In this document: positions 3,673 through 64,000 of the stretch, piece by piece
Numbering within the stretch: position 1 is the stretch's first letter
Layout of the letters: each line of letters opens with the position of its first letter
DNA from: Candidatus Micrarchaeia archaeon
GTDB taxonomy: Archaea; Micrarchaeota; Micrarchaeia; Anstonellales; J096
Direction of reading: 5' to 3'
Assembly (NCBI GenBank): GCA_041500865.1
Contig: JBGQMY010000003.1
Coordinates: 6,728 to 70,727, forward strand
DNA length: 64,000 nucleotides
Made by a program: the position numbers and the translations under genes
Notes under the pieces: model-generated
What the model was told of the DNA's origin: nothing
Database searches by the model: none
The model's input: the letters and a program-made list of their open reading frames with translations, nothing else

Positions 3673-5031
3673 ATGCAGGAAAAGCCAATCTTGAATAATG
3701 GCGAGCCTAAACAGGCAAGGCAGCCATTGCTGGACAAGGACGCGGCACAAAGGGCGCTGGACTGCGGCCTTATCAGCGCAGTGATGGACGGAAAAATCGA
3801 AAACGCAAAAAGCCTCGTTGAAATGGGCGCAAGCGTTGAGGCAAAGGACTATTGGGGAAAGACCGCGCTGATGTGCGCATGCATGCAGGGCCATGAGGAT
3901 GTCGCCTTGTTTCTTATTGATAACGGCGCCAGCATGAATTCAAAAGACAATGGCGGATGGACGCCGATGATGTTTGCGGCGAACAATGGATTCAACGAAA
4001 TAATAGGGATGCTTATTGACAAGGGGGCAGATGCCTATGCGGTGGACAACGCGGGGCACACTGCGCTGATGCACGCGGTTCACGAAGAGCGCATTGACGC
4101 CGCGAGGTTCATGACAAAAAAGGGATTTGGGCTGAAAACGCACAGGATAAGGTGGATTGACGACATACCTTATGCCGCAAGCGAAGGAAGGGAGCTGATG
4201 ATGAGGTTCCTTGTTGAAGAAGGGGCGAATATCGACGCAGTCGGAGGCATGTTCTCCACGACTGCGCTTGATTACGAGATAAGGTGCGGGAACTTCGGAT
4301 TGGCGAAGTTCCTTTTGGACCATGGCGCCAACATCGACAAAGGAGACAGCTTTGAAAAGACTGTGCTGATTCGCGCAGTGGAAAACCGCAACATCAAGGC
4401 GATGTCGTTCATCCTGGAAAACAAGGCAAATATTGACGCAAGGGAGCAGACCAAGAAGACTGCGCTGATGATTGCATGTGAAAATGGGCATATGGAAGCG
4501 GTCAGGCTCCTTGTCGAGAACAAGGCATCGCTGGATTTGGGGGCGATGACTGCGCTGCTGCATGCATTGCAGAATAGGCATGCTGAAGTCGCAAAATTCC
4601 TGATAAAGAGCGGCGCAGACGTGAATGCGAAGGACATCAACGGCTTGACTGCGCTCATGTGGGCGTCACCCTGGGCAGACACGAACATCGCCAGGATGCT
4701 TCTGGAAAAAGGCGCCGATGTGAATGCAAGCGACAAGGAAAGAAAGACCGCGCTGATGCACGCAGCCGAAGGCAGGAACATCGGAACCATAATGTTCCTG
4801 GTGGACAACGGGGCATGGATAAACACAAAGGACATATATGAAAGGAATGCCGTGGATTACGCGCTTAGATACGACAGCAGCAGGACGGACATGCGCGTGC
4901 CGTACACCGATTCGCAGGGCGACGGGATGGAAACTGCAAGATTCCTGAGGTTCGCCCACATGTTCCAGCCCCTTGTGGGGATAGGACCGCTGAGCGAGCT
5001 TGCGCTGGATTTCGCTGCATGCGTTTCGTAA
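3673..5031 (+). CDS. large ankyrin-repeat protein (about 12 repeats) with C-terminal …LALDFAACVS tail
   Basis: 452 aa; repeated 'KTALMxAxxxGHxExVxxLIxxGAxxNxKD' units. Confidence 0.8.
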   Translation: MQEKPILNNGEPKQARQPLLDKDAAQRALDCGLISAVMDGKIENAKSLVEMGASVEAKDYWGKTALMCACMQGHEDVALFLIDNGASMNSKDNGGWTPMMFAANNGFNEIIGMLIDKGADAYAVDNAGHTALMHAVHEERIDAARFMTKKGFGLKTHRIRWIDDIPYAASEGRELMMRFLVEEGANIDAVGGMFSTTALDYEIRCGNFGLAKFLLDHGANIDKGDSFEKTVLIRAVENRNIKAMSFILENKANIDAREQTKKTALMIACENGHMEAVRLLVENKASLDLGAMTALLHALQNRHAEVAKFLIKSGADVNAKDINGLTALMWASPWADTNIARMLLEKGADVNASDKERKTALMHAAEGRNIGTIMFLVDNGAWINTKDIYERNAVDYALRYDSSRTDMRVPYTDSQGDGMETARFLRFAHMFQPLVGIGPLSELALDFAACVS

Positions 5032-5277
5032 GGGAACCAAGGTTCCCTTGACGCTCAACCTTCCTTTTATTTGGCACTGCGGTGCCCTAAATGCTTTTTT
5101 CTTTCCCGTAGACGGCTTTCTTTTTCGCAAAAATAGCTTCTTTTTTCCCAAGTATTTTTTCTTTGCAAAGGAGAACTTTTGCGCCAGCAGGCGCCAAACA
5201 TAGCTTCTTTTGGGGTGAAGGCAAAAATAGTTTCTTTTTCTCCAAGTACTTTTTCTTTTCTAAAGAAAAAGGACTTT

Positions 5278-5413
5278 TGCCAAGGGGGGGACTCGAACCC
5301 CCGACCTCTAGATGGCCCAAAGCGTGCCTATCATCGCCGTTTTCCAACGGCTCAGCACTCACAAAAGCGTGTTTTATGAGTCTAGCGCTCTAAGCCGGCT
5401 GAGCTACCTTGGC
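5278..5413 (-). tRNA. tRNA-Met/CAT-anticodon tRNA with ~60-nt intron at canonical 37/38 position
   Basis: Minus strand reads GCCAAGG-TA-GCTCAGCCGGCTTAGAGC-G-CTAGA-CTCATAA-[intron]-TCTAG-AGGTC-GGGGGTTCGAGTCCCCC-CCTTGGC-A. Confidence 0.75.
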
Positions 5414-5815
5414 TTGCATTAGGGATAGCCATGCATTATTTTTAAAACCCTGCTGTAGCGTTCCGCCTAACGTATGTGAACGTCAAAAAACGGCAGCAAA
5501 ATAATGAGCATCCGGACAATGGGCACTCATTGGCAAGCCCAAGGACTTAGCGTTGGGCGGGGGTCGGATTCCCTCGCGGATGGCCTGCAGCGTGCGCATA
5601 AGCGCGCTATCCTGCCCCTTATCTCCAGCCGCCCCTGGGAAGGCCCCTGCCGGCTCGTTGCACCTTATATGCCAGGCCAGCTCCAGGCGGAAAGGCCCAA
5701 ACATGCCGTCAAGCCGTATCTAAGCGCCTTGCCAACGAAAACCTGCAGAAAGAGCCTTGGGACAGTGATTTTATCGTGCCTGCTGCAAGGCCGATAAAAC
5801 CCCTTTTCCAATAGG

Positions 5816-6661
5816 CTATTCGCACCTGAATGTCATGGTGTTGCAGAACATGCCGTGCGGGCAGTTGTCGTCGCTTGCGCACCTGCCCTGCTGGGGCACG
5901 CATGTGCTGTTAGGCGCGCAGTACTGCCAGTTGTCGCAGTCTGCGTTGCTGTAGCAGTTTCCGTTCATGACCGTGCACTTGTGCGTCCTGCTTGCGCAGA
6001 ACTCCAATGCATTGCAGTCGGAATGGGTGTCGCAGTATCCAAGCGCCGCCTTGCACTTGTGGGACGGCAGCTGGCACAGCTGCCACGTGCTGCATTCCTC
6101 GTCCCCGTTGCAGAAGCCGGACTTCGGCGTGCACATGTGCGTCTTCACTGTGCAGGTCTCCCACGCCTCGCAGTCGGTGTCCAGGTCGCACCTGTCGGCC
6201 ATCGGTATGCATCTTTGGAGCGTCGTGTTGCAGTACTGGTACGAGTTGCACTCCGTGTCCTTCGTGCACCTGCCCGCCTTCAGCTTGCAGACGTGGCCCT
6301 TGGTGTCGCAGGAATACAGCGGGTTTGTGCAGTCTTCCTCGACGTTGCACCTGCCTTCAGCCGCTATGCACTTGTTGGCGGTAGTGTTGCACCATTCCCA
6401 CAGGTTGCAGTCGGCGTCCTTGCCGCACAGGCCCTGCTTCGCTATGCAGGTGTGCGTCTTGCCGTCGCAGGTCTGCCAGCCCAGGCAATTGGAGGACGAG
6501 TCGCACATGCCAGGCCTTGACTCGCACGCCTTGTCCGTTATGTTGCATGACTGCCAGCTCTTGCATTGGTCGTCGCCCGTGCAGCTGCCCTGTATGCAGC
6601 CGAAAGAAAACATGAATGCCGTTGCTATTGCCGCAATCGCCAAAATTCCTATGTGCTTCAT
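5816..6661 (-). CDS. secreted cysteine-rich tandem-repeat protein (10 x ~26-aa four-Cys repeats)
   Basis: Signal peptide MKHIGILAIAAIATAFMFSFGC; repeats C-x5-C-x5-C-x6-C (CxxDxDCxxWQxCxxxxxxC); several NxS/T sequons; start chosen at Met12 of track ORF. Confidence 0.7.
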   Translation of the reverse strand: MKHIGILAIAAIATAFMFSFGCIQGSCTGDDQCKSWQSCNITDKACESRPGMCDSSSNCLGWQTCDGKTHTCIAKQGLCGKDADCNLWEWCNTTANKCIAAEGRCNVEEDCTNPLYSCDTKGHVCKLKAGRCTKDTECNSYQYCNTTLQRCIPMADRCDLDTDCEAWETCTVKTHMCTPKSGFCNGDEECSTWQLCQLPSHKCKAALGYCDTHSDCNALEFCASRTHKCTVMNGNCYSNADCDNWQYCAPNSTCVPQQGRCASDDNCPHGMFCNTMTFRCE

Positions 6662-6694
6662 CAAAAATACACCCTTGCTTAGATTTTTACACAA

Positions 6695-6955
6695 ATGTTT
6701 TTAATGGTTTGGAATGGAGTTGGTAATATGCTTTACAGGATACCCATGGATAGGGGCGCATTCAGCGGCAAACTGTTCTACCTTGATAAGGATACGGACG
6801 CGCCGTACTGCAAACAGCACGGGGCCATGAACGTCGTAACCGTCGTAAGCAAGAATGGAAAAAAGTACCTGTGGTACAGGTGCCTCGTCTGCCACATAGG
6901 GGTCGTTTACGACAAGGATAACAAGACAAACCAGGGCTGGGCCGAGGCGAGGTAG
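6695..6955 (+). CDS. small Zn-ribbon-like protein (Cys/His pairs)
   Basis: 86 aa (or 75 aa from Met at 6728); YCKQHG…CLVCH; first gene of three co-directional adjacent/overlapping ORFs. Confidence 0.4.
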   Translation: MFLMVWNGVGNMLYRIPMDRGAFSGKLFYLDKDTDAPYCKQHGAMNVVTVVSKNGKKYLWYRCLVCHIGVVYDKDNKTNQGWAEAR

Positions 6956-7354
6956 ATGGACGCTGAAGGCATGATGAAGAAGCTCGACGCTTTGAAAATC
7001 AAATTCAGCGTTGTCGGAAGCTACGCGCTCATGGCAAACGGCTACAAGGTCAAGCCCAACGACGTTGACATCATAGTTGATAAGAAAGATGTTGAAAAGG
7101 CGAAATCCGCGCTCTCGGAGTTCGGGGCAGAGGCGGAAGTCTACGAAGGGACGCCAAAATCAAGGGTATTCACTCCGCAAGAGTACAAGGAGCTGTTCCT
7201 TTCAAAGTTCACCAACGACGACCTCATGATAGAGAAGCTCGCAAGGCACGCGGTTGACGAGCCGAGGCTGCTCGCGCTTTTTGAGGGAACGGAAATTATG
7301 TTCGTACTTGAAAGCATGAAAAAGGATATTGAACGGAAGCTTGCGAAAAAATGA
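6956..7354 (+). CDS. minimal nucleotidyltransferase (Pol-beta superfamily, MNT-like)
   Basis: 132 aa; 'VVGSYALMANG…PNDVDIIV' = hG[GS] + DxD NTase signature; start abuts stop of the upstream ORF. Confidence 0.55.
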   Translation: MDAEGMMKKLDALKIKFSVVGSYALMANGYKVKPNDVDIIVDKKDVEKAKSALSEFGAEAEVYEGTPKSRVFTPQEYKELFLSKFTNDDLMIEKLARHAVDEPRLLALFEGTEIMFVLESMKKDIERKLAKK

Positions 7355-11675: not shown

Positions 11676-12779
11676 TCATACGGCTAATTCCTTGGCAAAT
11701 AGCCTATTGAATCTTTCCACGACTCTTTTCCTGAAATTATAGCTATTTGCAAATCTGGCATAAGCAAGCCAGCCTTCCAGGCTTTTCACTATTTCTTCCC
11801 TGTTCATCTCTCCTTTATCGCATTTCCGTTTGAACATGTCAAGGCGCTCCCAGATTCTTCTGGCATTGCTCTTCTTGAGAAGCCGGTACCCATGAAAAAT
11901 CCTGAAGCCAAGAAATGCTATGCCCCGTTCCAATGGAATAATGCTGGACTTTTCAGGATGGAGCCTTATCTTGAGCCGGTATGCCAGAAACTCGCTTATT
12001 TCAGCGTTCCACATTTCAAGCATTTTCCTGTCCCTGTGCAGAATCACGAAATCATCCACATAGCGGATGTAATATCTGGCCCCAAGCCGCTCCTTTGCAA
12101 AATGGTCGAATCCGTTCAGGTATAGATTGGCAAAGAATTGCGAGGTCAGGTTTCCAAGGGGCATCCCTTTCCCATGAACTTCAGCTTTGTGGTTTGCCAA
12201 TATCATTCTTACCAATTGCATAATATCCGGATCCTTTATTTTACGGCTAATCATCTCCAATAGGATTTCATGTTCAACTGTCGCAAAATAATGCAGAATG
12301 TCCGCCTTGAGGGCATATCCGCAGCAAACGGATTCTTCATCGCTAGGCTCTTTTTCTGCTTTTGGCTTGCAGAAAGAGACCGCGCGCATGAACCGCTCCA
12401 GTCTCCGTATCGCATTATGCGTTCCCTTGCCTTTCCTGTTGGCAAATGAGTCAAAGATGAAATCCTTTTCAAAAATGGGCATTATGACGTTGCATAATGC
12501 ATGGTGCACAACGCGGTCCCTGAAATGGGACGCGCTTATTTTTCTGGTCTTTGGGTCCCTTACGAGGAATACAGTTGGCGGGCGAGGCGAATAGGCAAAT
12601 GCCTTCAGCTCGGATTCCAATTGCCTGAGATTATTTTCAAGATTGGATTCGAACTCAATTACATAATCCTTCAGCGTTTTCCTTTTTCTGGCTTTCTGAA
12701 ATGCAAGCTTAAGGTTTTCATAGGAGCAAACCTGCGGATAAAGATGCCTGTAGGATTTCATGGGTTTCGCCAAGCGCAC
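11676..12779 (-). CDS. diversity-generating retroelement (DGR) reverse transcriptase
   Basis: 367 aa; RT motifs incl. DGR-specific 'LGNLTSQFFANLYLNGFD' (replaces QG of intron RTs) and 'YIRYVDDFVI' (YxDD); TR lies immediately 5'; GTG at 12779 or ATG at 12761. Confidence 0.85.
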   Translation of the reverse strand: MRLAKPMKSYRHLYPQVCSYENLKLAFQKARKRKTLKDYVIEFESNLENNLRQLESELKAFAYSPRPPTVFLVRDPKTRKISASHFRDRVVHHALCNVIMPIFEKDFIFDSFANRKGKGTHNAIRRLERFMRAVSFCKPKAEKEPSDEESVCCGYALKADILHYFATVEHEILLEMISRKIKDPDIMQLVRMILANHKAEVHGKGMPLGNLTSQFFANLYLNGFDHFAKERLGARYYIRYVDDFVILHRDRKMLEMWNAEISEFLAYRLKIRLHPEKSSIIPLERGIAFLGFRIFHGYRLLKKSNARRIWERLDMFKRKCDKGEMNREEIVKSLEGWLAYARFANSYNFRKRVVERFNRLFAKELAV

Positions 12780-12790
12780 AGATAAATGCC

Positions 12791-13050
12791 CCTAGGGTGC
12801 AAGCCCAAGTCATTCCGAACGCATTGGACGGCCTGTAGTTCGCGTTGACGTTCTGCCTGTTGTTGCCGTTGTTGTTGACGTTGCGGACCAGAAGGCCTCA
12901 AGAGTAACCCGTCTGCCACAATGGCACTTTCGTGCCAACACCGCCGCTTCACGCTTTCAATCCATGATTTACTCAATGTCGCGGCTGAATCCCATGTCTG
13001 GCTTTAACCAGCACTGCAGACAGGTGTGTGGCCTAGGCTTGCACCCTAGG
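12791..13050. repeat. 15-bp perfect inverted repeats (cctagggtgcaagcc / ggcttgcaccctagg) bracketing TR plus ~135-nt spacer
   Basis: 12791-12805 is the exact reverse complement of 13036-13050; could form a long-range stem enclosing the TR RNA. Confidence 0.5.
12809..12898 (-). repeat. DGR template repeat (TR)
   Basis: ~90 nt homologous to 13315..13404; coding-strand reads …CGC AAC GTC AAC AAC AAC GGC AAC AAC AGG CAG AAC GTC AAC GCG AAC TAC…; all differences from VR are at TR adenines. Confidence 0.75.
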
Positions 13051-13076: not shown

Positions 13077-13988
13077 TTAAAGCGCTTTCCCTACCGCATC
13101 CAGGAATTCCCTGATTGGCGCTACGATCTGGGCGTCGATTATGCCAGGCATCCTGCCAACAGCGCTTACAGCCCTATTATATGCGGCTTTCAGCTCATCA
13201 GCCGAGATGCCGGGCACTTTGATAATCGTCTCTTTTTCAGCCGGTTTTCCTGACTGAACATTAGAGGCAAGAAGCGCCTGGATTTTTTCGGTGTCCCCTT
13301 CGGGGACTTCCAACGCCACCCCGAACGCACCGGACGGCCCGAAGTACGCGTAGACGCCCTGCCTGCCGTAGCCGAGGTCGTCGACGACGCGGACCAGAAG
13401 GCCCACATATGAAGAACCATTCAGCCTCCAAAGATATCTTGCATCCGGGCTTTGCGGCACCTTGTCTCCATGCGGAACGCCTGTTTCCTTATGCGGCATG
13501 TACAAGCCATCAGGACCTGGGAATTCTGGAACCGGTATCAGCCTGTCTTTTGAAATGTCCAAAACCATTGAATCTCCGTCTTTCTGGAAATCTTTTGAGG
13601 TTAGACCCAGTGCCACAAGCGCAACGTTCTTTTCGCCCTTATAATCCCCTGTTGTCGGCAAAACTATCCTTGAACCGTCTCCTGCGGAAAAGACTATCTC
13701 CTTTCCCAGTCTAACGCCTGGCTTTTCATAGGCGATTGAGGCGTCAACAGCGAAAGGCGTCATTGGAACCAAGCTTCTCCATGTCGCTCCAACGTTAAGC
13801 GCAACATCCGCTGTGTTATGGGATATGACTAGGCAATTGGTTCCATGCACATTGTTGAATTCCTCAACTAAAGGATGGGCATCAAAAAGCTTTGTTGTTC
13901 CGCTGTTCCTTAGAATCAGTATGTTCTTCTTTTGTCCGTTAGCCTCTAACTTTATCAGTTCCTTTCCAGCAATTTGGATTTGTGACAT
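13077..13988 (-). CDS. DGR target protein (variable protein; uncharacterised family, paralog of 59364..60158)
   Basis: 303 aa; contains the VR at aa ~196-225 (…VRVVDDLGYGRQGVYAYFGPSGAFG…); adjacent to TR-RT on same strand. Confidence 0.75.
   Translation of the reverse strand: MSQIQIAGKELIKLEANGQKKNILILRNSGTTKLFDAHPLVEEFNNVHGTNCLVISHNTADVALNVGATWRSLVPMTPFAVDASIAYEKPGVRLGKEIVFSAGDGSRIVLPTTGDYKGEKNVALVALGLTSKDFQKDGDSMVLDISKDRLIPVPEFPGPDGLYMPHKETGVPHGDKVPQSPDARYLWRLNGSSYVGLLVRVVDDLGYGRQGVYAYFGPSGAFGVALEVPEGDTEKIQALLASNVQSGKPAEKETIIKVPGISADELKAAYNRAVSAVGRMPGIIDAQIVAPIREFLDAVGKAL
13293..13307 (-). promoter_or_regulatory. GC hairpin 7 nt downstream of VR 3' end (IMH-associated stem-loop)
   Basis: gtcccc-ttc-ggggac: 6-bp GC stem, 3-nt loop, positioned as in characterised DGRs. 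Confidence 0.5.
13315..13404 (-). repeat. DGR variable repeat (VR) inside target gene
   Basis: Matches TR except ~20 positions, each where TR coding strand has A (TR AAC -> VR GTC/GAC/CTC/TAC/GGC/TTC codons). Confidence 0.75.
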
Positions 13989-17224: not shown

Positions 17225-17324
17225 GGGCTCGTAGCTCAGTCGGTAGAGCGACGGTCTTATATGGCGCGTTCTAGCACAAACCTAAGTTAGCCGTAGGTCC
17301 TGGGTTCAAGTCCCAGCGGGCCCA
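17225..17324 (+). tRNA. intron-containing tRNA, apparent anticodon TAT (Ile)
   Basis: GGGCTCG-TA-GCTCAGTCGGTAGAGC-G-ACGGT-CTTATA-[~27-nt intron]-A-GCCGT-AGGTC-CTGGGTTCAAGTCCCAG-CGGGCCC-A. Confidence 0.7.
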
Positions 17325-23984: not shown

Positions 23985-24557
23985 TTATTCCTTGGCGCCG
24001 ACCTGCTTCAGGAGATTGACTATTTCGGCGTTCCCATCGGATTCAGCATATATAAGTATAGTGTAACCGTTTTCGTCCTTTGCGTTGACGTCCGCGCCTT
24101 TGTCTATCAGCAGGCTAACTACATCAGTATGCTTCTTTACTACAGCCCACATGAGCGCGGTGTAACCGTGATTGGTTTTTGCGTTGACGTCCGCGCCTTT
24201 GTCTATCAGCAGCTTGGTGATATTAGTGTTCCCACCATATGCAGCCTGCATGAGCGCGGTGTAACCGTTTTCGTCCTTTGTGTTAACGTCCGCGCCTTTG
24301 TCTATCAGCAGGCTAACTACATCATTATTCCCAAAAGGTGCGGCATACATGAGCGCGGTCATGCCGGAACGATCTGTTGCGTTGACGTCCGCGCCTTTGT
24401 TGATTAAACTTTTCGCAAGGGCAGTATCGTTATGTTGAGTAGCGTTCAGTAACTCTGCAGTGTAATTCTCCTGCCCTGTCGGTTGATTGTTTGTCTGTCC
24501 CAAGCACCCGAAAAGCAGTACTAATCCAAGAACGATTGCCAATATCGCAGTTCTCAT
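23985..24557 (-). CDS. secreted/lipoprotein-like ankyrin-repeat protein
   Basis: Signal peptide with lipobox-like 'LLFGC'; 4-5 ANK repeats; no Cys tail. Confidence 0.75.
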   Translation of the reverse strand: MRTAILAIVLGLVLLFGCLGQTNNQPTGQENYTAELLNATQHNDTALAKSLINKGADVNATDRSGMTALMYAAPFGNNDVVSLLIDKGADVNTKDENGYTALMQAAYGGNTNITKLLIDKGADVNAKTNHGYTALMWAVVKKHTDVVSLLIDKGADVNAKDENGYTILIYAESDGNAEIVNLLKQVGAKE

Positions 24558-30901: not shown

Positions 30902-31165
30902 TTACAGGCCTAGCCACTTTTCATATTCTTTATGCGTCCCTACAAAATAGAGCATCTTTGTTTTTGCAGATTCGTTTATCTTGTAGACAAGCCTGTACTG
31001 CCCTATCTCAGAAACATAGAAATCAAGCCCTTGCTTCAGATGCCTGGCTTGGATATCCTGCTGCAATTGGAGGATTTTCTTTGCCACCCTTTTTTTCATG
31101 CTGTTGTCAAGCCTTGAAAAATACCTGTCCCAGTCTGCATGAAAATTAAGGGCATAGGGGCTCAT
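30902..31165 (-). CDS. RelE/ParE-family type II toxin
   Basis: 87 aa; 'YRLVYKINESAKTKMLYFVGTHKEY' typical RelE/ParE core; 4-nt overlap with upstream antitoxin ORF. Confidence 0.65.
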   Translation of the reverse strand: MSPYALNFHADWDRYFSRLDNSMKKRVAKKILQLQQDIQARHLKQGLDFYVSEIGQYRLVYKINESAKTKMLYFVGTHKEYEKWLGL

Positions 31166-31443
31166 TCAAAAGCCTCTGGATATTTCCTGCGCACGTCCGC
31201 CAATGTCAGAACCCTTTTCTTTCCTGATTTTATTTCCTCGTCCATTTTCTGTAATTTTGCGGCTGCAAGCTCATCCAGGATTTCCTCGCTGGATTTCACA
31301 ACCCGGTATTCCTTCCCAAGCTCAAGTATGCCTGCGCGGACTGCCTCCGCCTTTGTCTTGAAGAAACCGGCTTCTACCAGCCTCTTCAGCGTATCCTCCA
31401 CAGAACCGTCCAGGTGTATTAATATGTCTGCCATTTCCACCAC
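31162..31443 (-). CDS. ribbon-helix-helix antitoxin
   Basis: 93 aa; N-terminal RHH-like 'ADILIHLDGSVEDTLKRLVEAGFFKTKAEAVRAGILEL'. Confidence 0.55.
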   Translation of the reverse strand: MVEMADILIHLDGSVEDTLKRLVEAGFFKTKAEAVRAGILELGKEYRVVKSSEEILDELAAAKLQKMDEEIKSGKKRVLTLADVRRKYPEAFE

Positions 31444-31574
31444 AATGTGGAATATATCAAATGGATATATAAATATATCATTTTGATAGATTTAAAATGC
31501 AAAAACGGGCCCGGGGCAGCCATGGCCGTGCGCGTCCATTTGTCCCAGGCCCTGCGCTGCAGAAGGTGATAAAC

Positions 31575-46908: not shown

Positions 46909-47670
46909 CTATTCCTGAAGCCAGATGGGCTTTCCGTCCTTCATATCTATGGACGCGGCCTGGCTTGCAAAAAGATTAATCATGTCCGGGCTGTTGATTT
47001 GCCTGGCATAGCCAAGCGCATCCATGCCTGCCTTGTCTATTGCCTTGGCATCAGCGCCCTTGCTTACCAGGAAAGCGCATGTTTCGCTGAATCCCCTCAT
47101 TGCTGCCCAGATGAGCGCGGTCCTGCCCCATACAGTATCACTTGCGTTTATGCTTGCGCCATTTTCAATAAGCAGGCTGCATACGCCAATCCTGCCCAGG
47201 TATGCCGCCCACATGAGCGGGGTCCTGCCTGACTTGTCTGTTGCATTGACGCTTGCGCCTTTCTTTATCAGGAGTGCACAGGTGCTGGCTCTCCCACGGT
47301 ATGCTGATTCCATGAGCGGGGTGATGCCATTCACGTCAGTCGTTTCCATGTCCGCGCCATTTTCCAGCAGGAATGCGCATATCCTTTTGTTGCCTGCGCC
47401 CGCAGACCCCATGAGCGCGGTTTTGCCGCATTCGCTCTTTGCATTGACGTCCGCGCCAGCCTTGATGAGCCGCAGGATTTCTTCTGCATTTTTCGAGCCC
47501 TGCCATTGGAATTTTGCGTTCCATGCCGCATTGAGGAGTTTTTTGTCCAGTTCCTCCTGCAGGTCAGTGCGGAGCTTGCTTGGTTTGTCTGGCTCAGGCT
47601 TCATCTTTTTGTCAAAAGGCGGCTTTCTGTTAGTTGCACTGCGCCTTTGTTTCTCCGTTTTCTGCGCCAT
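46909..47670 (-). CDS. ankyrin-repeat protein
   Basis: 253 aa, about 5 ANK repeats; first of three tandem ANK genes with duplicated promoter regions. Confidence 0.75.
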   Translation of the reverse strand: MAQKTEKQRRSATNRKPPFDKKMKPEPDKPSKLRTDLQEELDKKLLNAAWNAKFQWQGSKNAEEILRLIKAGADVNAKSECGKTALMGSAGAGNKRICAFLLENGADMETTDVNGITPLMESAYRGRASTCALLIKKGASVNATDKSGRTPLMWAAYLGRIGVCSLLIENGASINASDTVWGRTALIWAAMRGFSETCAFLVSKGADAKAIDKAGMDALGYARQINSPDMINLFASQAASIDMKDGKPIWLQE

Positions 47671-47702
47671 GTGTCCGTTTATGTTAGAAAAAGATTAAAA
47701 GG

Positions 47703-48452
47703 TTATGCGGGGCCCGGCGACTGCCGCAAGCTGGCAATATAGGGCTTTCTTTTGGCCGGACCCATGGACGCGGCGCGCCTAAGCAGGTCAACCGTGCCTG
47801 TATGCTCGTTTTCCTGTGCCCATACGTATGCGGTCATGCCCCCATTGTCCTTTATGCTGATGTCTGCGCCTTTTTCAAGCAGCAGCATTGCCGTTTCCCT
47901 GTATCCGATTTCAGCGGCATATGTAAGCGCGGTCCTGCCGAAGTTGTCCCTTGCATCCACGTTTGCGCCTTTCCCAATCAGCAATGCGCAAATGCCGGCC
48001 TGTCCGCCAAATGCCGCATGCATCAGTGCAGTCCTTTCAAGGCTGTCTGTTGCGTCCACGATTGCGCCTTTCCCAATCAGCAGGGCGCATATGGCCATCA
48101 GCCCTGACGATGCGGCGTGCATGAGGGCAGTTCCGCCGACGTTGTCCTTTGCATCGATGGCTGCCGCGTTGTCAATCAGCATTATGCATGTCTCGGCATG
48201 CCTCCGCTGTGCGGAAAGCATCAGCGCGGTCATGCCCCTGCCGTCTACTGCATCTGCCTGCGCGCCCTGTTCCAGCAGCATTTTGGCCTTGCCTGTCTCG
48301 CCGTCCATGGCCGCCTGCAGAAGTTCCAAGCCCAGCCTTTTCTGCCGCCTGTTGGCGGGCCTCTTGCACCCATCCGCCTCTGGCTTGAAAAATGCCCTTT
48401 CCGGCTTTTTTTCGCTTTTTGGGATTCCGAATTTACCCAATGTGAGGAGCAT
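47703..48452 (-). CDS. ankyrin-repeat protein
   Basis: 249 aa, about 5 ANK repeats. Confidence 0.75.
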   Translation of the reverse strand: MLLTLGKFGIPKSEKKPERAFFKPEADGCKRPANRRQKRLGLELLQAAMDGETGKAKMLLEQGAQADAVDGRGMTALMLSAQRRHAETCIMLIDNAAAIDAKDNVGGTALMHAASSGLMAICALLIGKGAIVDATDSLERTALMHAAFGGQAGICALLIGKGANVDARDNFGRTALTYAAEIGYRETAMLLLEKGADISIKDNGGMTAYVWAQENEHTGTVDLLRRAASMGPAKRKPYIASLRQSPGPA

Positions 48453-48533
48453 GTGTCTGTTTATGCATAAAAAGGATTAAAAGGTTATGCCGGGCCTGGC
48501 GGTTGCCGCAAGCTGGCAAGATAGGACTTTCTT

Positions 48534-49607
48534 TTATCTGGTTGCCCACTTATAGATTTCAACGCCCAGGAGAAACTGAGGCGTTGCGCCGCTGCTATCT
48601 ATCGCGTTTTCGTCCGCCCCATTTTTCACAAGGAATTTGTATACTTTCCTGTTCATTCCAAAAACGGTTTCTGCGGCATAGTGCAGTGCTGTCCTGCCTT
48701 CCTTGTCGCCCATATCAATAAACTTTTTCACATTCCCGCCGGCTTCAGCATATTTTTGTATGAGGAGGTTGCAGATTAAAGTCCTGCCTGGCAACGCAGG
48801 AATGGCTGCGGCATGGTGCAGGGATGTCCGGCCGTCATTGCTTTTTGCGGCAATCAGCTTCTTTATGTCCCCTCCGGATTTTGCGTATTCTTTTATAAGA
48901 AACGCGCAGGTTTTTATGCTTCCGTAAGCTGCGGCATACATGAGCGGGGTGTTGCCGCAGTTGTCCGCTGCGTTCAGGTCGGCGCCATTTTCAACCAGAA
49001 TCTCGCAGGTTTCTGTGTACCCGTAGCATGTTGATGCTGCAGTTATGAGCGCGGTTTCACCGTATTCGTTTCTCGCATTCACGTCAGCGCCGTTATCAAT
49101 CAGCAGATTGCATGTCTCGGGATTACGGGCTGCAGCATATATGAGCGGAGTGTTGCCGAACTTGTCCCTTGCGTCCACATCCGCCCCGGCTTTCAGAAAA
49201 GTCTCAATCCCTGCAGAGTCACAAAAAAATGTGTTGGTTATAGCCTCATCAAGAAGCATGCTGTCCAACCGCGCCTGTTCCATCTTGGAAATCGCCGGTT
49301 TCGCATCTGCTGCGGCCTTCCTTTGGCTTTTGTTTTTCTTGGAATAGCAATTCAGGACTTTTATGCAGTTTGCCAATTTTCTCTGCGCCATTTCCAAGCT
49401 AATGTCATTCCAGCAGCCTCCGCACGCCAGCGCGGCTGCGAGAATTCCGGGCATTACCCACGCCGGAATGCGGATTCCGATTTTTTTATTGGCGGCTGTT
49501 GGGTTATCGGCTGCGTCCTTTGCCTTTCTCGTTATCATGCATATTTGATTTTCGCTGTTTTTTGCGCCATCCGCTGCCTTTGCCAAAAACGGCTTTTCTG
49601 CTGCCAT
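48534..49607 (-). CDS. ankyrin-repeat protein
   Basis: 357 aa, about 7 ANK repeats (…GNTPLMYAAAYGSIKTCAFLI…). Confidence 0.75.
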   Translation of the reverse strand: MAAEKPFLAKAADGAKNSENQICMITRKAKDAADNPTAANKKIGIRIPAWVMPGILAAALACGGCWNDISLEMAQRKLANCIKVLNCYSKKNKSQRKAAADAKPAISKMEQARLDSMLLDEAITNTFFCDSAGIETFLKAGADVDARDKFGNTPLIYAAARNPETCNLLIDNGADVNARNEYGETALITAASTCYGYTETCEILVENGADLNAADNCGNTPLMYAAAYGSIKTCAFLIKEYAKSGGDIKKLIAAKSNDGRTSLHHAAAIPALPGRTLICNLLIQKYAEAGGNVKKFIDMGDKEGRTALHYAAETVFGMNRKVYKFLVKNGADENAIDSSGATPQFLLGVEIYKWATR

Positions 49608-56634: not shown

Positions 56635-57339
56635 TTGATTATGGAACAGAGGCAGAAGCCCATCCGCGGAGCCATGCAAAAGGCGAAATCGCTGTTTTCA
56701 GGCAAGGCGAAGCCCGAAGGCGCGAGAAGGTTGAACGAGAAAGAGCAGAAGGAGTTGAATGACAGGCTCTTTGCCGCGATTTGGGATTATAAAAAATTAT
56801 TAACTGACGAAATGCAAATCGAAACCCATATTGTAGCGCGTTATACTTCAAGGTCGCGCATCAGGAGGCTGTTGAGGCTTGGCGCAGACGTGGATGCAAA
56901 GGACAGCGGCGGCGAGACCCCGCTCACGCGGGCCGCATGGAAAGGCGATATGGACATTTGCAAAATCCTGATTGAAAACGGGGCAAACCTGGAGGCAAAA
57001 GACGCGTATTGGGGAGATACGGCATTGATGCTTGCTGCCCGCAATGGCAATCAGTATTTGGTTAAATACCTTGTTTCGCGCGGGGCTGATGTGAACGCAA
57101 GGAACAATAATGGCGAAACGCCTTTGGTTCTGGCTGTTGGCGGCAGCACGACAAAGGAATGGAAGACTGTGCGTGTCCTTCTTCAGAGCGGCGCAAACCA
57201 GCTTGGAGCCGCTTTTATGCATGCCAGATTTGACGTGGCTGAATTGCTGAAAAATGCAATGATGAATCAGCTTGAAAATGTAATCGGAAAAGAAAGCTTC
57301 GCGCTGTTCATGCGCTCGTTCAGGGAATGCACTGCCTGA
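56635..57339 (+). CDS. ankyrin-repeat protein with C-terminal …FMRSFRECTA tail
   Basis: 234 aa; paralog of 58359..59093 (N-terminal 'KSLFSxKAKPExARxLNEKEQKxLND' and tail conserved). Confidence 0.75.
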   Translation: MIMEQRQKPIRGAMQKAKSLFSGKAKPEGARRLNEKEQKELNDRLFAAIWDYKKLLTDEMQIETHIVARYTSRSRIRRLLRLGADVDAKDSGGETPLTRAAWKGDMDICKILIENGANLEAKDAYWGDTALMLAARNGNQYLVKYLVSRGADVNARNNNGETPLVLAVGGSTTKEWKTVRVLLQSGANQLGAAFMHARFDVAELLKNAMMNQLENVIGKESFALFMRSFRECTA

Positions 57340-58358: not shown

Positions 58359-59093
58359 TTGATTATGAAGCAGAAGGAAAGGCAGGAAAGCCATGTATTC
58401 CTGCAAAAGTCGAAATCGCTGTTTTCGCGCAAGGCAAAGCCAGAATCAGCAAGAAAGCTAAACGAGAAAGAACAAAAGGATTTGAATGACATGCTCTTTG
58501 CAGTGATTTCAAAGCATAAAAAATTTACAGAGGATGCCACCTCTTATGAGCCTGCCCAAATCCACATTGTATCATATCCTATATCAATTATCCGAATCAA
58601 GAGGCTGCTTAAAGCCGGAGCGAATCTTGAAGCAAGGGACAATGAAGGCAGGACTCCGTTAATGTATGCTATATTTACTGAGCATATGGACATCTCCAAA
58701 ATTCTTGTTGAAAATGGCGCAGAGATTGAGGCAAAGAACAATGACGATATGACAGCACTGATGTTTGCTGCAGCCTCAGGTAATCATAAGATAGCTAACT
58801 ATTTAATTTCGCGGGGGGCAGACGTAAATGCAAAAGATAGAAATGGTCATACCCCATTGGTTTTGGCTGTCCATAATGACTTTGTTAGATCTGGCAGCGG
58901 CCACAACATCCTTAAAACCGCCAAGATCCTGATAAAGAACGGGGCCATAATAGGCCAGAATGCACTCATGTGCGCGGGTAGGGATAAAACGATTGAGTTT
59001 CTTAAAAAAGCAATGCTGGCCCAGCTCGAAAAACAGATGGGAAAACAAAATTTCTCGCTGTTTATGCAATCTTTTAAGGAATGCACTGCCTGA
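58359..59093 (+). CDS. ankyrin-repeat protein with C-terminal …FMQSFKECTA tail
   Basis: 244 aa; paralog of 56635..57339. Confidence 0.75.
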   Translation: MIMKQKERQESHVFLQKSKSLFSRKAKPESARKLNEKEQKDLNDMLFAVISKHKKFTEDATSYEPAQIHIVSYPISIIRIKRLLKAGANLEARDNEGRTPLMYAIFTEHMDISKILVENGAEIEAKNNDDMTALMFAAASGNHKIANYLISRGADVNAKDRNGHTPLVLAVHNDFVRSGSGHNILKTAKILIKNGAIIGQNALMCAGRDKTIEFLKKAMLAQLEKQMGKQNFSLFMQSFKECTA

Positions 59094-59124
59094 TTTTTAA
59101 AACGTTCCGGGGACAACTACAAAC

Positions 59125-59208
59125 GCCAGGGTGGCAGAATCCGGTAATGCGCCAGACTTGAGATCTGGTGCCCGCAAGGGCTCAGGGGTTCAAATCCCCT
59201 CCCTGGCG
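59125..59208 (+). tRNA. tRNA-Ser (anticodon TGA), long variable arm
   Basis: GCCAGGG…CCAGA-CTTGAGA-TCTGG-TGCCCGCAAGGGCTC-AGGGGTTCAAATCCCCT-CCCTGGC-G. Confidence 0.85.
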
Positions 59209-59363
59209 AAGCCCCTTTTCTTCGCGAAGAAAAGGTCCTTGGGTTCAAAAGAAGGCGTTTTGTAAAAGCCCAGGGAAAAACCGACGCATCAACCGTTTTT
59301 CGCCGAAGCCTTTTTTCAAAAGGCTTCGCGGAAAGAAAAGCTATTTTTGGCGCCTGTGGGCGC

Positions 59364-60158
59364 TTATTGCCTCAGCAGTTTTTCAGCAGCGTCTAGTTGC
59401 TCTTTTGTACCCCTGACTACAAGCGTGCCGTCGTCCTCTCTTGTTACTGTCATTTGTGCGGGCTTTGCTTCAAGCGCCCGCGCCCCCTTCGGGGTCCCAC
59501 CCAACGACGCCACCCCGAGAAGCGCGGACGACCCGTTGTTGAGGTTGACGTTCCTCCTGAAGTAGTAGTCGAGGAAGTTGTAGCCGCGGGCAACAGGGCC
59601 GACCCTCCCGGAACCATCAACCCGCCACAGACGGCTGGCTTGTGGGTTGCGGGAACCAATTTCCTTTCCTGTCGGTATGCCATGCTTGCCATCAAGAGGA
59701 TACCAACCGTCCTTTTCCGGGAAGTTGGGAATAATATCAATAACGTTTGATCTTATCATAATCTCCTTGCCGTCAATTTCAAGCGAGTAGTCCGGATGCT
59801 CTGAAACCAGGATGGCGTTCTTCTCGCTTCCGTAGTCTCCTATTGGGAATATCCAGCGCTCCCTTGTTTCCGGGTCTGTGTATACGATTGCCTTAAGCTC
59901 CTTGCTGAACATCTTGCTCCTGTTGAATTCAGTTCTAGGCTCGACGTATGCGGCCATCGTGCCTGTCCAGCACGGAAAAACCTCAACTATTGATTTATAT
60001 CCATCTCCTGCAAACGCCTTTTCCATCTTTGCGTTTGAGGCGATTATCATTCCCGTCTCTGCGACCCTTTGGATTGCAACTTTGGCTGAAACGCCCTCTT
60101 TGTAGGGTATGAATGCCTTTAAGCCCTTTTCACTTGTCAGTTGGACTGTTCCTGCCAT
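59364..60158 (-). CDS. paralog of the DGR target protein, with VR-like NNC-codon segment and downstream GC hairpin
   Basis: 264 aa; aligns to 13077..13988 (…DYGSEKNAILV… / …DYKGEKNVALV…); region 59515-59600 encodes 'GYNFLDYYFRRNVNLNNG' followed by GGGGTGGCG…CCCCGAAGGGG. Confidence 0.6.
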   Translation of the reverse strand: MAGTVQLTSEKGLKAFIPYKEGVSAKVAIQRVAETGMIIASNAKMEKAFAGDGYKSIVEVFPCWTGTMAAYVEPRTEFNRSKMFSKELKAIVYTDPETRERWIFPIGDYGSEKNAILVSEHPDYSLEIDGKEIMIRSNVIDIIPNFPEKDGWYPLDGKHGIPTGKEIGSRNPQASRLWRVDGSGRVGPVARGYNFLDYYFRRNVNLNNGSSALLGVASLGGTPKGARALEAKPAQMTVTREDDGTLVVRGTKEQLDAAEKLLRQ

Positions 60159-60246: not shown

Positions 60247-61149
60247 TTATTTCGGCAGCCGTTGGGCTAGCGCATCAAGCTCTTTCAGCACCCTGTCCGG
60301 CGAATATTCCTTAAGTTTCTTGACAACGTTTTTGTCGTCCAGCATCTTCCCCTCAAGCGGGATTGCAACCCCGTCAACGGTTGAAGGGTCGTTCATGTGC
60401 AGCGAAAACGGGCAGCGGCCGAGCTTGCCTGGCGGCGTCTGCGAAGGGTCTATGATTATGCGGCCAGGCAGCTTTTCATGGCCCCCTGAAACCTCGAGGC
60501 CCGTCTTCCTTTTCACTATGGCTGTCCACCTGCCCACGAACGAGCCGAGCGGGTCGGACTTGCTGTACCCAAGGTGCCTGCTGTAGAAATCAGCCGCAAC
60601 CGGCTTTTCCAGCATCAGGTAGACGTGGAACGAGCTGCCTGTGTACATGGCAAACGGCTGGAACGGCGCCAAGGCGGAAAACTCCTTGTCTGCCTTTATG
60701 GTTTCAAGCAGTGTCTTTGCAGCAAGCTGCGCATCCTCGCCGCTCGCAGTCCCGCCCCTGTCTATGTCTATGAATATCCTGTCAATCGTTTTCCCTTTTT
60801 CGCCATTTACGGCATAGAAAAAATCGGCAAGCTTGCGCGGCGGGAAATAGCGCCATATCTTTCCCTGTAACGGAGTAATATTGTCTTTTGCGTCCTCAAG
60901 GTGCCTGCCTTCGCTTCTTTGCTTGAGAAAGGCGTCGTCAACGCCTTTTGCCAGCTCCTCGGAATACAATGGAGAAAGGTATGAGCCGCGGTTCAGGAAC
61001 GGCTTTGCGGCTTTCGGAATCAGCACCTTCGCCGCTATTTCTTTTCCCTTAAGGAAACCTGCCAATTTGGCAGCAACCCTAGAATAATAGCCAACAACGT
61101 CCAAGTCCCCGAACGGATGCAGCGCGTCTGCCATGGAAGCATAGCGCAA
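60247..61149 (-). CDS. archaeo-eukaryotic primase-polymerase, LigD polymerase-domain-like (PrimPol/PolDom)
   Basis: AEP motifs I 'FIDIDRGG', II 'TGSSFHVYLML', III 'GRIIIDPSQ…GKLGRCPFSLH'. Confidence 0.55.
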   Translation of the reverse strand: MRYASMADALHPFGDLDVVGYYSRVAAKLAGFLKGKEIAAKVLIPKAAKPFLNRGSYLSPLYSEELAKGVDDAFLKQRSEGRHLEDAKDNITPLQGKIWRYFPPRKLADFFYAVNGEKGKTIDRIFIDIDRGGTASGEDAQLAAKTLLETIKADKEFSALAPFQPFAMYTGSSFHVYLMLEKPVAADFYSRHLGYSKSDPLGSFVGRWTAIVKRKTGLEVSGGHEKLPGRIIIDPSQTPPGKLGRCPFSLHMNDPSTVDGVAIPLEGKMLDDKNVVKKLKEYSPDRVLKELDALAQRLPK

Positions 61150-61409
61150 CCAACGCTTAAAAGGCTAATTGATTGGGTGCAGATAATTCCTTGTACGCGT
61201 TTCAGCCCTGCCAGCCAAAGGAAGCGGATTTTTCGCTGATGCATTCGTCTCAAAACAAAGGGTTTCCTTCGTCATTCTGCAAAGGCAGCATAGCAAACGT
61301 TATAAACCAAGCTTCCCAAGCATAAAAAGTGGCTGAAACAATAAACGAGAACACCAGCGGCAGGCCGGTTTCCCCTGCGCGCTGCAGCGTAAGGGAAGCG
61401 AGCAGGCAG

Positions 61410-62870
61410 ATGAACGTAAGGAAGCTCAGGAAGATGGGCATTGACTTTTTTGTCGGCGTGTCAAAGGAAAGGGCGGAAATGCGAAGGCCGCTGGCAATAC
61501 CGATATCTTCCCCCACAGAAGAACAGAGGCTTGTCGGGAAGGCAATCTCCATAAAAGTTGTCGGAAGGAGCAGAAAAAGATACGGCATAATGAGCGACAG
61601 CGAAACGACAGTGAACGAAAACGGCAGGACATTCAAGGTCCTGGACGCAAAGTTCATAGACAACGGAAACATCAAGAAGATGCACCTGGAATATGACGTA
61701 ACGGAGCTTGTGCAGGCAGGGGCAAGGCCGGAAGAGATACCTATCGTGGAGTTCACTGCAGACGAAAGCGGCGTGCTGACCTACGCAAGCAGGCAATATG
61801 AGGCAAACATCGAAGAATATGGTAATAGCACAGGCTATTCGCTCGGCAGGCCAAGGGACGGCGTTGTCGGAAAATACATGATAAATTCATTCATGGAGGG
61901 CAAGGAGCGCGAGGAGATGGAAAATATATTCCGGGAGGCAAAGGGCGGATTCCACGTCTTGAAGGAGATAAACCTCCCGTTCTTCCTCATGTGCCTAAGC
62001 TGCTGCATGGGGCTGCAGTGCAAGGGCAGCAACATGACGAACGTCGCCTTGTCCTACGTCGTCAAAGGCGGCACGTTCTTTTACGGGGCAATAAACAACT
62101 CCAGGCTCAGCGAAAAGGAATGGAGGCAGGTCTGGGAGGCCATGGCAAAGGAAAAGCGCTGGTGGAAAATGCCCAGGAGACGCGAAATAAGGAAGGCTGA
62201 CAGGCGCGATATGGGCAAGGGCGGCGAAAGGCTTATCGCGCTGCTTTCGGCGGCGGCATGGGCGTCGTCATCTCCGTCAAACGGAAAAAGGCAGGACAAG
62301 GCAAAGGAAGACGCAATGATTGCCGTTCCTGTAAGTAAAGCCGCGGCAGCCGCAGAAACCCAAAAATATTTCTCGCAAAAGACATTCCGAGGCATAATGG
62401 AAAGGCTGGAAAGCAAAACAAATGCAGGGGCAAAGGCCAAAGCGCCTGTTGCGGCAGCTATGTCCATGCTTGGCATAAGCGCATTTGCAAGGATGGACAT
62501 CCGTTCTGTCAAGATTGCGTTCATGCATGCCGCGGCACAGCCCTGGCCGTTGCACCATGCGGCAATGGCGCGCACGCCATGGGCTGCAAAGGCAGTTTTC
62601 ACGTCAGCCTTGCCATCAGCTTCGCCTGCGGCGCAAAGGCGCGCAAGCCCGGCTTTTGGCAGGGCGCGCAGCAAGGCGGCAAAGGCAGCAATTGGCTATG
62701 CCATGATGATTGCGGCTGCTTTCACCAGGCATGCGAAACGCAAGAAAGCAAGGAAAAATGGCGATGCTGGCGGAATAATGCTGAACATACTGTCCTATAT
62801 CGCATCAGGCGTAAGGACATATATGCAGCTTAGGCAGGTTTCATACTACCCTTATGCCGAGCATCTTTGA
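61410..62870 (+). CDS. hypothetical protein: conserved ~250-aa N-domain plus Ala/Lys-rich low-complexity C-terminus
   Basis: Paralogous to the ORF starting at about 63056 (…GRSxxKYGIxSDxE…ENGRTxKxLxAxFIDNGNxKxMxxEYDxTELV…GVVGKY…FYGAINNS…). Confidence 0.4.
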   Translation: MNVRKLRKMGIDFFVGVSKERAEMRRPLAIPISSPTEEQRLVGKAISIKVVGRSRKRYGIMSDSETTVNENGRTFKVLDAKFIDNGNIKKMHLEYDVTELVQAGARPEEIPIVEFTADESGVLTYASRQYEANIEEYGNSTGYSLGRPRDGVVGKYMINSFMEGKEREEMENIFREAKGGFHVLKEINLPFFLMCLSCCMGLQCKGSNMTNVALSYVVKGGTFFYGAINNSRLSEKEWRQVWEAMAKEKRWWKMPRRREIRKADRRDMGKGGERLIALLSAAAWASSSPSNGKRQDKAKEDAMIAVPVSKAAAAAETQKYFSQKTFRGIMERLESKTNAGAKAKAPVAAAMSMLGISAFARMDIRSVKIAFMHAAAQPWPLHHAAMARTPWAAKAVFTSALPSASPAAQRRASPAFGRARSKAAKAAIGYAMMIAAAFTRHAKRKKARKNGDAGGIMLNILSYIASGVRTYMQLRQVSYYPYAEHL

Positions 62871-63055
62871 GGCCGTCCTCATCCGAACCCATAGCGTTAC
62901 TGTTGCGGTTTGTCATAGCCTTCGTCATTGGGCGAAGAAGCCATGGCATCATTTAAAAACCAGACTGGGCAACCGTAAAACGTGGGAATCGATATAATTG
63001 AAAACAGGAGCGGCAGCCCGAAATCGCCTGTCTCCTACCAGATACGCCAGACCGC

Positions 63056-64000
63056 AATGCAGAACAGGATGGACAGGCTGGCGTGCTACACCATAAACAA
63101 TTACGTGGGCATGTACAAGGAAATCGTCAACCCAAAAAGCTTCCTTGTGCCCATATCATCTGTCGCTGCAGGCCAGAGGCTGATAAGAAAAACGATACAT
63201 ACTGAAACGGTAGGCAGGAGCGACGAAAAATACGGCATAATAAGCGATGGCGAAAGATTCGTCTCGGAAAACGGCAGGACGCTGAAGAGGATAGAGGCAA
63301 CGTTCATAGACAACGGAAACGTAAAGAGGATGCAGGTTGAATACGACATAACGGAGCTCGTGAATGCCGGCGCAAAGCCGGAAGAGATACCCATACTGGA
63401 GTTCACGACCGACGCCAACGGCGTGCTGATATACGCAAGCAGGCAATACGACGACAACATAGACGCCTACAAGAGGAAGACGGGATATGATAAAGGAGTT
63501 TACAGGGACGGCGTCGTCGGAAAATACAACATCAAGAGCTTCATGATAGGAAGGCAGCAGCAGGAGATGGAAAACATATTCCAGGAGACAAGGTCCGGAT
63601 TCCACGTAATAAGGGAGATAAACGTTCCTTTCTTCCTGAGTTTTGGCCTGCACTGCAAGGACAGCAACATGACGAACGTCGTTGTCTCGTATATCATGCA
63701 GGACGGGATGCTTTTCTACGGCGCAATAAACAACTCCAAGCAGAGCGACAGGGAGTGGAAAAGGGTATGGATAGGCATAACCAAGAGGAAGTTCTGGAGG
63801 ATAAGGGCAAGGAAATTCAGGAGGGAAAGGATTGACCCGAGGGAAGTTGGAATTGGCGGCGCAGCCATGCTGCAGTTCGCCGCGCTGGGCCCGGCGGCAT
63901 CAATGGGATTTTCCGGAATGGAAACAAGGGAATCAAGGCTTCTGGCGCGCTTTGCAAAGGGCGGGGCGGCATTCGGGAACGCAAGGCCGCCTAAAAAAGG
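63056..64000 (+). CDS. paralog of 61410..62870 (runs off window end)
   Basis: Open frame from ATG 63056 to window edge with >50% identity to N-domain of 61410..62870. Confidence 0.4.

Follow-up and report, generated by a model that had tools for sequence, protein, structure and literature searches.

A remote DGR target gene in a micrarchaeal genome with a variable region related to the template of a second DGR lineage

The gene analysed here, ORF2, was compared with the DGRs of DUSEL4 Nanoarchaeota and with AvpA, which is their variable protein (Paul et al. 2015, PMC4372165; Handa et al. 2016, PMC5006420; PDB 5ioo). The features described for Nanoarchaeota DGRs include an IMH motif pair and a GRA-triloop hairpin inside the target ORF, and Nanoarchaeota carry four or more DGRs per genome (PMC4372165). 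In Treponema denticola and Legionella, remote targets are VR-bearing paralogs located far from the reverse transcriptase (RT) and the template (TR) (Wu et al. 2018, PMC5758913; Nimkulrat et al. 2016, PMC4891356). A non-adjacent target is expected to show only A-to-N differences from its TR (Wu et al. 2018, PMC5758913), and target genes of T. denticola survive in strains without RT or TR (PMC4891356). The BPP-1 system combines an IMH, a downstream GC-rich hairpin with a GRNA tetraloop and a 7-10 bp stem, and upstream homology with adenine-specific mutagenesis; a 6-bp extension of the spacer keeps measurable activity (Guo et al. 2011, PMC3240598).

ORF2 shares traits with these systems and departs from them in several respects. 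It has no detectable sequence similarity to AvpA, and the one cassette in view, some 46 kb away, has a TR that does not match it. Like the remote targets of T. denticola and Legionella, it is a VR-bearing paralog far from RT and TR; in a sister MAG one TR serves both an adjacent and a remote target, and targets in its family outlive lost core components, as they do in those bacteria. It is unlike them in that the TR which it matches with adenine-only differences was seen in a different genome and nowhere else, whereas the TR on its own contig fails. With BPP-1 it shares the IMH, the downstream GC-rich hairpin, the upstream homology and adenine-specific differences, but here the hairpin has a 3-nt GAA loop and a 6-bp stem and lies inside the coding sequence, and an RT-16 RNA lies upstream of the TR. 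All elements of ORF2 match known DGR biology, namely remote targets (PMC5758913), remnants (PMC4891356) and the archaeal IMH and hairpin (PMC4372165); only the template-like 3' half of its VR and a pair of sister alleles might be mechanistically new.

The window, that is, the whole stretch of 64,000 nucleotides that was analysed, derives from a small DPANN-type archaeon. ORF2 (59364..60158, minus strand) is an intact 264-aa variable-protein gene of a subfamily that we call type B. An earlier note on this DNA, made from the sequence alone, had regarded it as a paralog of the DGR target at 13077-13988, and this was borne out by 28% identity over 185 aligned residues (E 2e-15). An AlphaFold model built from 33 homologs was confident (pLDDT 89) and predicted a C-type-lectin fold with a small C-terminal beta-hairpin/helix domain, placing the VR near the C-terminus of the lectin-fold domain. 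A Pfam search of ORF2 assigned no family, and a sequence search of the PDB returned no relative. In the family alignment, the hypervariable block is flanked by GRVGPVARG and PS..GVAVEAP, which are kept in all members. On the evidence set out below, we regard ORF2 as a genuine non-adjacent DGR target of the Nanoarchaeota/DPANN kind.

A GCGCC-N5-GGCGC inverted repeat (59349..59363, minus strand) directly follows the ORF2 stop codon, with T-rich tracts next to it, and is probably a bidirectional terminator common to ORF2 and a convergent tRNA-Ser(TGA) gene (59124..59209, plus strand), which belongs to the context outside the DGR. The inverted-repeat motif also occurs 3' of two homologs, P0003 and P0009, and convergent tRNA genes lie 70-250 nt downstream of all three (Ser-TGA at ORF2; Arg-CCT at P0003, L125 9103-9178; Gln-CTG at P0009, L126 10878-10950), with the motif GCGCCnnCAGGCGCCAAAA...TTTC common to these sites. 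We dropped the convergent tRNA as a general family feature because the three tRNAs differ and 28 more distant loci have none. On the other side, 88 nt upstream of ORF2 and on the same strand, is a gene for a 300-aa protein (60247-61149, minus strand) with a weak match to the LigD primase-polymerase (E 0.14) and AEP-like motifs (IDIDR, SSFHVY) recognised by eye; other remote copies have no such neighbour. Positions 61329-64000 together with 4035-7277 of the overlapping contig L001 hold two tandem paralogous units of about 1.65 kb with 71-80% nucleotide identity, whose products of 513 and 529 aa have Ala/Lys-rich low-complexity C-terminal halves and no Pfam match. Ankyrin-repeat genes with 99-nt repeat units are unusually numerous in the window (900-1600, 3250, 24000-24430, 28850, 47000-49200, 56635-57339, 58359-59093), and two paralogous ones lie just downstream of ORF2. 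Two tRNA matches are long, at 5278-5413 (136 nt) and 17225-17324 (100 nt); they are probably intron-containing, as would suit DNA from an archaeon.

The variable region of ORF2, VR2, covers 93 nt including the IMH (59508..59600, minus strand, as are all its parts) and corresponds to codons 187-217. It starts with an invariant 5' anchor, GGCCCTGTTGCCCGCGGCTAC (59580..59600), which encodes GPVARGY and is identical to the 5' end of two type-B TRs (TRx of the sister cassette L123 and the TR of L136). The variable codon block that follows (59532..59579) reads AAC TTC CTC GAC TAC TAC TTC AGG AGG AAC GTC AAC CTC AAC AAC GGG; the run from GGC TAC AAC to AAC AAC GGG that the earlier note had quoted is thus present at 59532-59585, and after it come GGGGTGGCG ... 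ACCCCGAAGGGG. The IMH, GGGGTGGCG (59508..59516), is identical over its nine nucleotides in VR2, in VR1 of the resident DGR and in the homologs P0003 and P0004. TRs carry GGAATGAC(T/C) in its place, so that VR2 shows the IMH versus IMH* difference, CGGGGT in VRs against CGGAAT in TRs.

Downstream of the IMH, the hairpin GACCCC-GAA-GGGGGC (59482..59496, minus strand) lies inside ORF2 and consists of four G-C pairs, one A.G mismatch and one closing G-C pair around the loop; it is of the GC-rich archaeal type with a GRA triloop inside the ORF, apart from the single internal mismatch. The resemblance to the IMH and hairpin of VR1 that had been noted earlier is real, with CCCC-GAA-GGGG present in addition to the identical IMH, although the spacer between IMH and hairpin is 11 nt in VR2 and 6 nt in VR1 and most members. 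The local reading frame of VR2 is also shifted by five extra bases before the hairpin and one after it, and as a result the hairpin reads ACC CCG AAG GGG GCG CGG (TPKGAR) in ORF2 and CCC GAA GGG GGC GCG (PEGGA) in the sister genes. Despite this change of frame, the 17 nt CCCCGAAGGGGGCGCGG are identical in VR2 and the sister genes, an argument that the DNA itself is under constraint. Decay was considered as the cause of the long spacer and of the double frameshift and was rejected, since the cassette-linked homolog P0004 has GGCGTCGTT and a 12-nt spacer. Among 16 family members, whose hairpin segments were picked by eye and mostly at a fixed 6 nt after the IMH, all six pairs of the 6-bp stem around the 3-nt loop showed double changes; pairing was 94.8% compared with 78.5% in shuffles (0/500 reached it) and was lost when one partner was slid. 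Folding of the IMH-hairpin region as a single sequence was not better than that of shuffles (z-score not significant), and the support for the hairpin is therefore comparative.

The resident DGR, which we call type A, occupies 11.7-14 kb of the window with all its parts on the minus strand. Target 1 (13077..13988, 303 aa) contains VR1 (13314-13403) and a hairpin (13293-13307); an RT-16 RNA (Rfam RF03019; 12899..13050; 62.4 bits, gathering score 50) lies between it and TR1 (12808..12897), which is the template of VR1 only, and RT1 (11676..12779; RVT_1 3.1e-17) is the sole reverse transcriptase in the window, 62% identical to the RT of the sister cassette. The RT-16 RNA holds the same place between target and TR in three related cassettes (L123, L135, L136), but neither ORF2 nor any of the remote copies examined has it nearby, so that it is a marker of cassettes and not of targets. 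TR1 and VR1 differ at 20 A sites and at one non-A position over 90 nt, the latter in IMH/IMH*, and at 17 A sites and no non-A position over 84 nt in the codon-aware alignment. A close type-A counterpart in the metagenome (L134) has a target 60% identical to target 1, and directly downstream of its RT is a phage-type integrase gene (L134 2986-3951), which hints that type-A cassettes can move on integrative elements. Elsewhere in the window, a RelE/ParE-type toxin-antitoxin pair (30905-31473, minus strand) adjoins a tRNA gene with no DGR part beside it and is 40-48% identical to a pair directly downstream of the sister DGR RT (L123 12286-12869). A comparison of synteny between the window and the sister cassette was set aside as uninformative, as it consists only of this mobile pair.

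In the codon-aware alignment, TR1 and VR2 differ at 12 A sites and 18 non-A positions and by a 3-nt gap. TR1 shows 14-15 non-A mismatches with VRs of a different genome, so that its similarity to VR2 is of the family level only. An adenine-tolerant scan of the window with all-degenerate patterns (A->A, C->M, G->R, T->W) recovered TR1 for VR1 and found no partner for VR2, and an adenine-tolerant pattern derived from VR2 had no match at TR1. ORF2 thus does not show only A-to-N differences from the resident TR, and the proposal that the same TR diversifies it in trans does not hold.

A different template fits far better. The closest homologs of ORF2, P0002 (64% identity) and P0003 (62%), come from sister MAGs (GCA_041478675.1, GCA_041500405.1). 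P0002 is the target of a cassette with an RT-16 RNA, a TR (TRx) and a 367-aa RT (L123), and P0003 is located on another contig of the same MAG (L125), with no RT within 8-10 kb. In GCA_041500405.1, TRx differs from the VR of P0002 at 20 A sites and from that of P0003 at 14, in both cases with no non-A difference, and therefore one TR serves the adjacent and the remote target. Over the first 69 nt, VR2 differs from TRx at 8 of 24 adenines and at none of the 45 non-A positions; over 84 nt there are nine A-site and six non-A differences. Throughout the block 59532..59579 every difference falls on a template adenine and all variable codons still end in C. Since the coding DNA flanking the VR upstream is only 72.6-77.2% identical among ORF2 and the sister genes, agreement at 45 of 45 non-A positions would arise by chance with a probability of at most about 1e-5 by our own calculation, which argues that VR2 was written from a type-B template. 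The six non-A differences all lie in the last 15 nt before the IMH and include a Pro->Ser change at a nearly invariant site. This segment varies among the TRs of other lineages (L135, L136) and in VR2 resembles the VR of P0006, and the differences may come from a TR peculiar to this lineage and not from decay. Another type-B cassette (P0004, L136) has a TR whose start is identical over 27 nt; P0004 itself differs from the TR of its own cassette at 16 A sites and four non-A positions when aligned without gaps, and matches it apart from an indel. The alignment of TR1 to VR2 that had been proposed in the earlier note thus gave only family-level homology; the adenine-specific pattern was seen with the sister TR, over 69 nt. 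The other suggestion of the note, that ORF2 could belong to another DGR with TR and RT outside the window, fits this adenine-only match.

The family to which ORF2 belongs is large and has no Pfam model; a search of 1.84 billion proteins gave 1,025 representatives with E <= 1e-3. Few homologs had a source name, usually that of a Micrarchaeota or 'ainarchaeum' MAG, and one fragment bore the label Nitrospira. In 8 of 62 metagenome loci, a TR within the locus matched the VR with 0-4 non-A mismatches; seven of these also show an RT, and the eighth (L147) lies on a contig that ends just after the TR. A VR-like NNC block with an IMH, but neither RT nor TR in up to 5 kb around it, was seen in at least 12 loci, in some of which the hairpin is lost. 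The VRs of P0009 and of P0006, the latter being a third paralog of the sister MAGs, show decay or truncation, with T or A at third positions and no hairpin. Locus L131 (10001-10681, P0005) is syntenic with the sister cassette (from a tRNA-intron endonuclease to a DRG-type GTPase), but TR, RT and the toxin-antitoxin pair are gone and the target ends right after its VR. Together with the remote target of the sister MAG, these copies indicate that live remote targets, fossils and cassette loss all occur in the family.

We searched for a cognate cassette in this genome. The window, 4.6 kb to its right (L001, L002) and 2.5 kb to its left (L139), about 71 kb in all, contain no type-B TR, second RT or second RT-16 RNA; the one RT, one TR and one RT-16 RNA present are all type A. 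By tblastn, no RT besides RT1 was found in the window or L001. Between the window start and a point 8.4 kb upstream of ORF2 there was no type-B TR, further RT-16 or second RVT gene, and no complete DGR cassette adjoins ORF2. Neither among 32 ORF2 homologs nor among the best 120 RT matches was there another type-B protein or another RT, respectively, with the NCBI+JGI source signature of this genome; as most matches were not traced to samples, this is weak evidence. P0005, P0006 and P0013 were rejected as paralogs from the same genome because they belong to other samples or MAGs, and P0035 and P0036, the closest RTs to the sister RT, were rejected as a second RT because they come from other samples; more than 7,000 DPANN RTs show 53-67% identity. 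The pattern GGCCCTGTTGCCCGC(NNC)9NGGNGG(NNC)6NGGTCGTCC had no match in a collection of metagenome contigs; as VR2 itself was also missing there, the collection does not include the source metagenome and this negative result carries no weight. Viral contigs contained no type-B TR and no family member, giving no sign of a virus-borne cassette.

The 3' half of VR2 is unusually close to a template. The run AGGAGGAACGTCAACCTCAACAAC (59535..59558, minus strand) holds four consecutive unmutated AAC codons, and along the nine AAC positions of the template the order of retained (R) and mutated (m) codons is RmmmmRRRR. Five of nine AAC codons were thus kept, whereas ten other TR-VR pairs together kept 7 of 92 (binomial P = 2.5e-4), and the impression of the earlier note that this half is oddly template-like was correct. 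A related pattern exists in the sister MAGs. P0003 and P0316 are alleles of the remote target; across some 262 residues they differ nowhere but in the VR, where the IMH-distal two-thirds read GYIGLSYDGRW and GYDSLYCD-WG, respectively, and the IMH-proximal third, SVSFDC, is common and already mutated; the cassette-adjacent VR of P0002 is identical in both MAGs. This suggests that the remote copy has recently been rewritten in part. The alleles differ in the IMH-distal part only, and an IMH-anchored partial event as in BPP-1 would predict the opposite.

Assemblies of the genome were compared for variability at ORF2. ORF2 and target 1 are both singletons at 90% clustering. The exact ORF2 protein is present in an NCBI and a JGI assembly, which are probably from the same sample, and the NCBI contig differs from the window by three SNPs in 14.6 kb, none in VR2 and one in the tRNA-Ser gene (59199). 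In the Logan assembly, the exact ORF2 and target-1 proteins are missing and 8 of 8 neighbouring proteins are present. A Logan contig (SRR29605729, L206) shows no difference from the window over 7.5 kb and breaks off at 59671 in ORF2, 71 nt before VR2; this break, which is not inside the VR, hints at read-level heterogeneity.

We propose that ORF2 encodes a variable protein with a C-type-lectin fold and is a non-adjacent DGR target outside the reach of the resident element. VR2 would last have been rewritten by adenine-mutagenic retrohoming from a type-B TR of the form GGCCCTGTTGCCCGCGGCTACAACAACCTCAACTACAACAACAGGAGGAACGTCAAC(A/C)TCAACAAC..., and ORF2 would keep what a recipient needs, that is, the IMH, the GAA-loop hairpin within the ORF and the 5' homology anchor. 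A rival reading makes ORF2 a second target of the resident DGR, diversified in trans by TR1 and RT1 by way of the common IMH and hairpin: VR1 and VR2 have the same IMH 9-mer and similar hairpins, TR1 and VR2 share GAACGTCAAC, and in the Bordetella phage DGR an IMH, a hairpin and at least 8 bp of homology suffice for retargeting (PMC3240598). Homing from TR1 would, however, overwrite the IMH-proximal part of VR2, which instead has TCGTCCGCGCTTCTC where TR1 has CCGTCCAATGCGTTC, and the 18 non-A mismatches with the 3-nt indel are what TR1 gives with VRs of another genome. The only-A-to-N relation (PMC5758913) fails accordingly; a role of the resident DGR is refuted for the consensus sequence, and we regard it as very improbable overall. 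Still less credible is that ORF2 is an ordinary paralog with no DGR history, whose NNC codons and GC-rich hairpin are merely inherited family features. The conservation of GRVGPVARG ... PS..GVAVEAP throughout the family and the unremarkable folding energy of the hairpin region would agree with such inheritance, but over 69 nt VR2 departs from a real TR at adenines only, the hairpin keeps its DNA sequence through a change of frame, and copies that have decayed, such as P0009 and P0006, look quite different.

Given a type-B origin of VR2, the fate of its cassette has to be considered. A second, type-B cassette (RT-16 RNA, TR and RT) elsewhere in the genome would serve ORF2 in trans, as in the sister genome. 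We favour such a cassette because the 45 non-A and all third codon positions are undecayed, the cis elements are intact, the sister MAG provides a precedent and nanoarchaeal genomes with multiple DGRs are known; the absence of ORF2 and target 1 from the Logan assembly and the end of L206 in ORF2 support it indirectly. Against it count the absence of a second cassette from about 71 kb, the six non-A differences at the 3' end, the stem mismatch and the high AAC retention. We infer that the cognate cassette is still in the genome and that ORF2 is still being rewritten, and put the chance that an unseen second cassette still serves it in trans at about even. A recently orphaned target is a serious if somewhat less probable reading: the type-B cassette would have written VR2 and then been lost or replaced by type A, leaving a frozen, functional lectin-fold allele. 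The only RT and TR in about 71 kb are type A, no second type-B protein of this sample was recognisable among the homologs, and cassette loss (L131) as well as VR decay or hairpin loss (P0006, P0009 and several metagenome copies) are documented in the family; in T. denticola, targets are known to survive in strains lacking RT or TR (PMC4891356). The Pro->Ser change at a conserved site, the stem mismatch and the non-A differences at the 3' end of VR2 would fit orphaning, as would the exact ORF2 protein in two assemblies with SNPs elsewhere and none in VR2, but those assemblies are probably from the same sample, and the 3' differences resemble those between TR lineages (L135, L136, P0006) and need not be decay. 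The reading frame, IMH and hairpin are intact, and over 69 nt neither the 45 non-A positions nor any third codon position has decayed, so that any loss of the cassette must be recent.

The template-like half of VR2 also raises the idea that VR rewriting in this archaeal DGR lineage is patchy or biased to the IMH-distal (5') part and not always IMH-anchored as in BPP-1. A mutagenised 5' half joins an essentially unmutated 3' half in VR2, and the P0003/P0316 alleles likewise differ in the IMH-distal part; we consider the idea doubtful. If true, it would imply internal resolution of a cDNA/target heteroduplex or another integration mechanism. ORF2 may possibly also serve as a natural specificity test, in which a resident DGR spares a non-cognate VR with an identical IMH and a near-identical hairpin.

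These results indicate that two distinct DGR template lineages have targets in the genome of the window, and that an IMH and hairpin in common with the nearest DGR are not enough to make a gene its target. An automated annotation of DGRs would either overlook ORF2 or attribute it to the wrong element. Remote copies are many in this family of about 1,000 clusters, and adjacency-based DGR surveys therefore under-count DPANN targets. If reads show that ORF2 still varies, it would be a clean archaeal example of diversification in trans over more than 46 kb or between replicons; if it does not vary, it would offer a dated instance of an orphaned target. The retention of template codons and the sister alleles could further bear on how the cDNA of archaeal DGRs is integrated.
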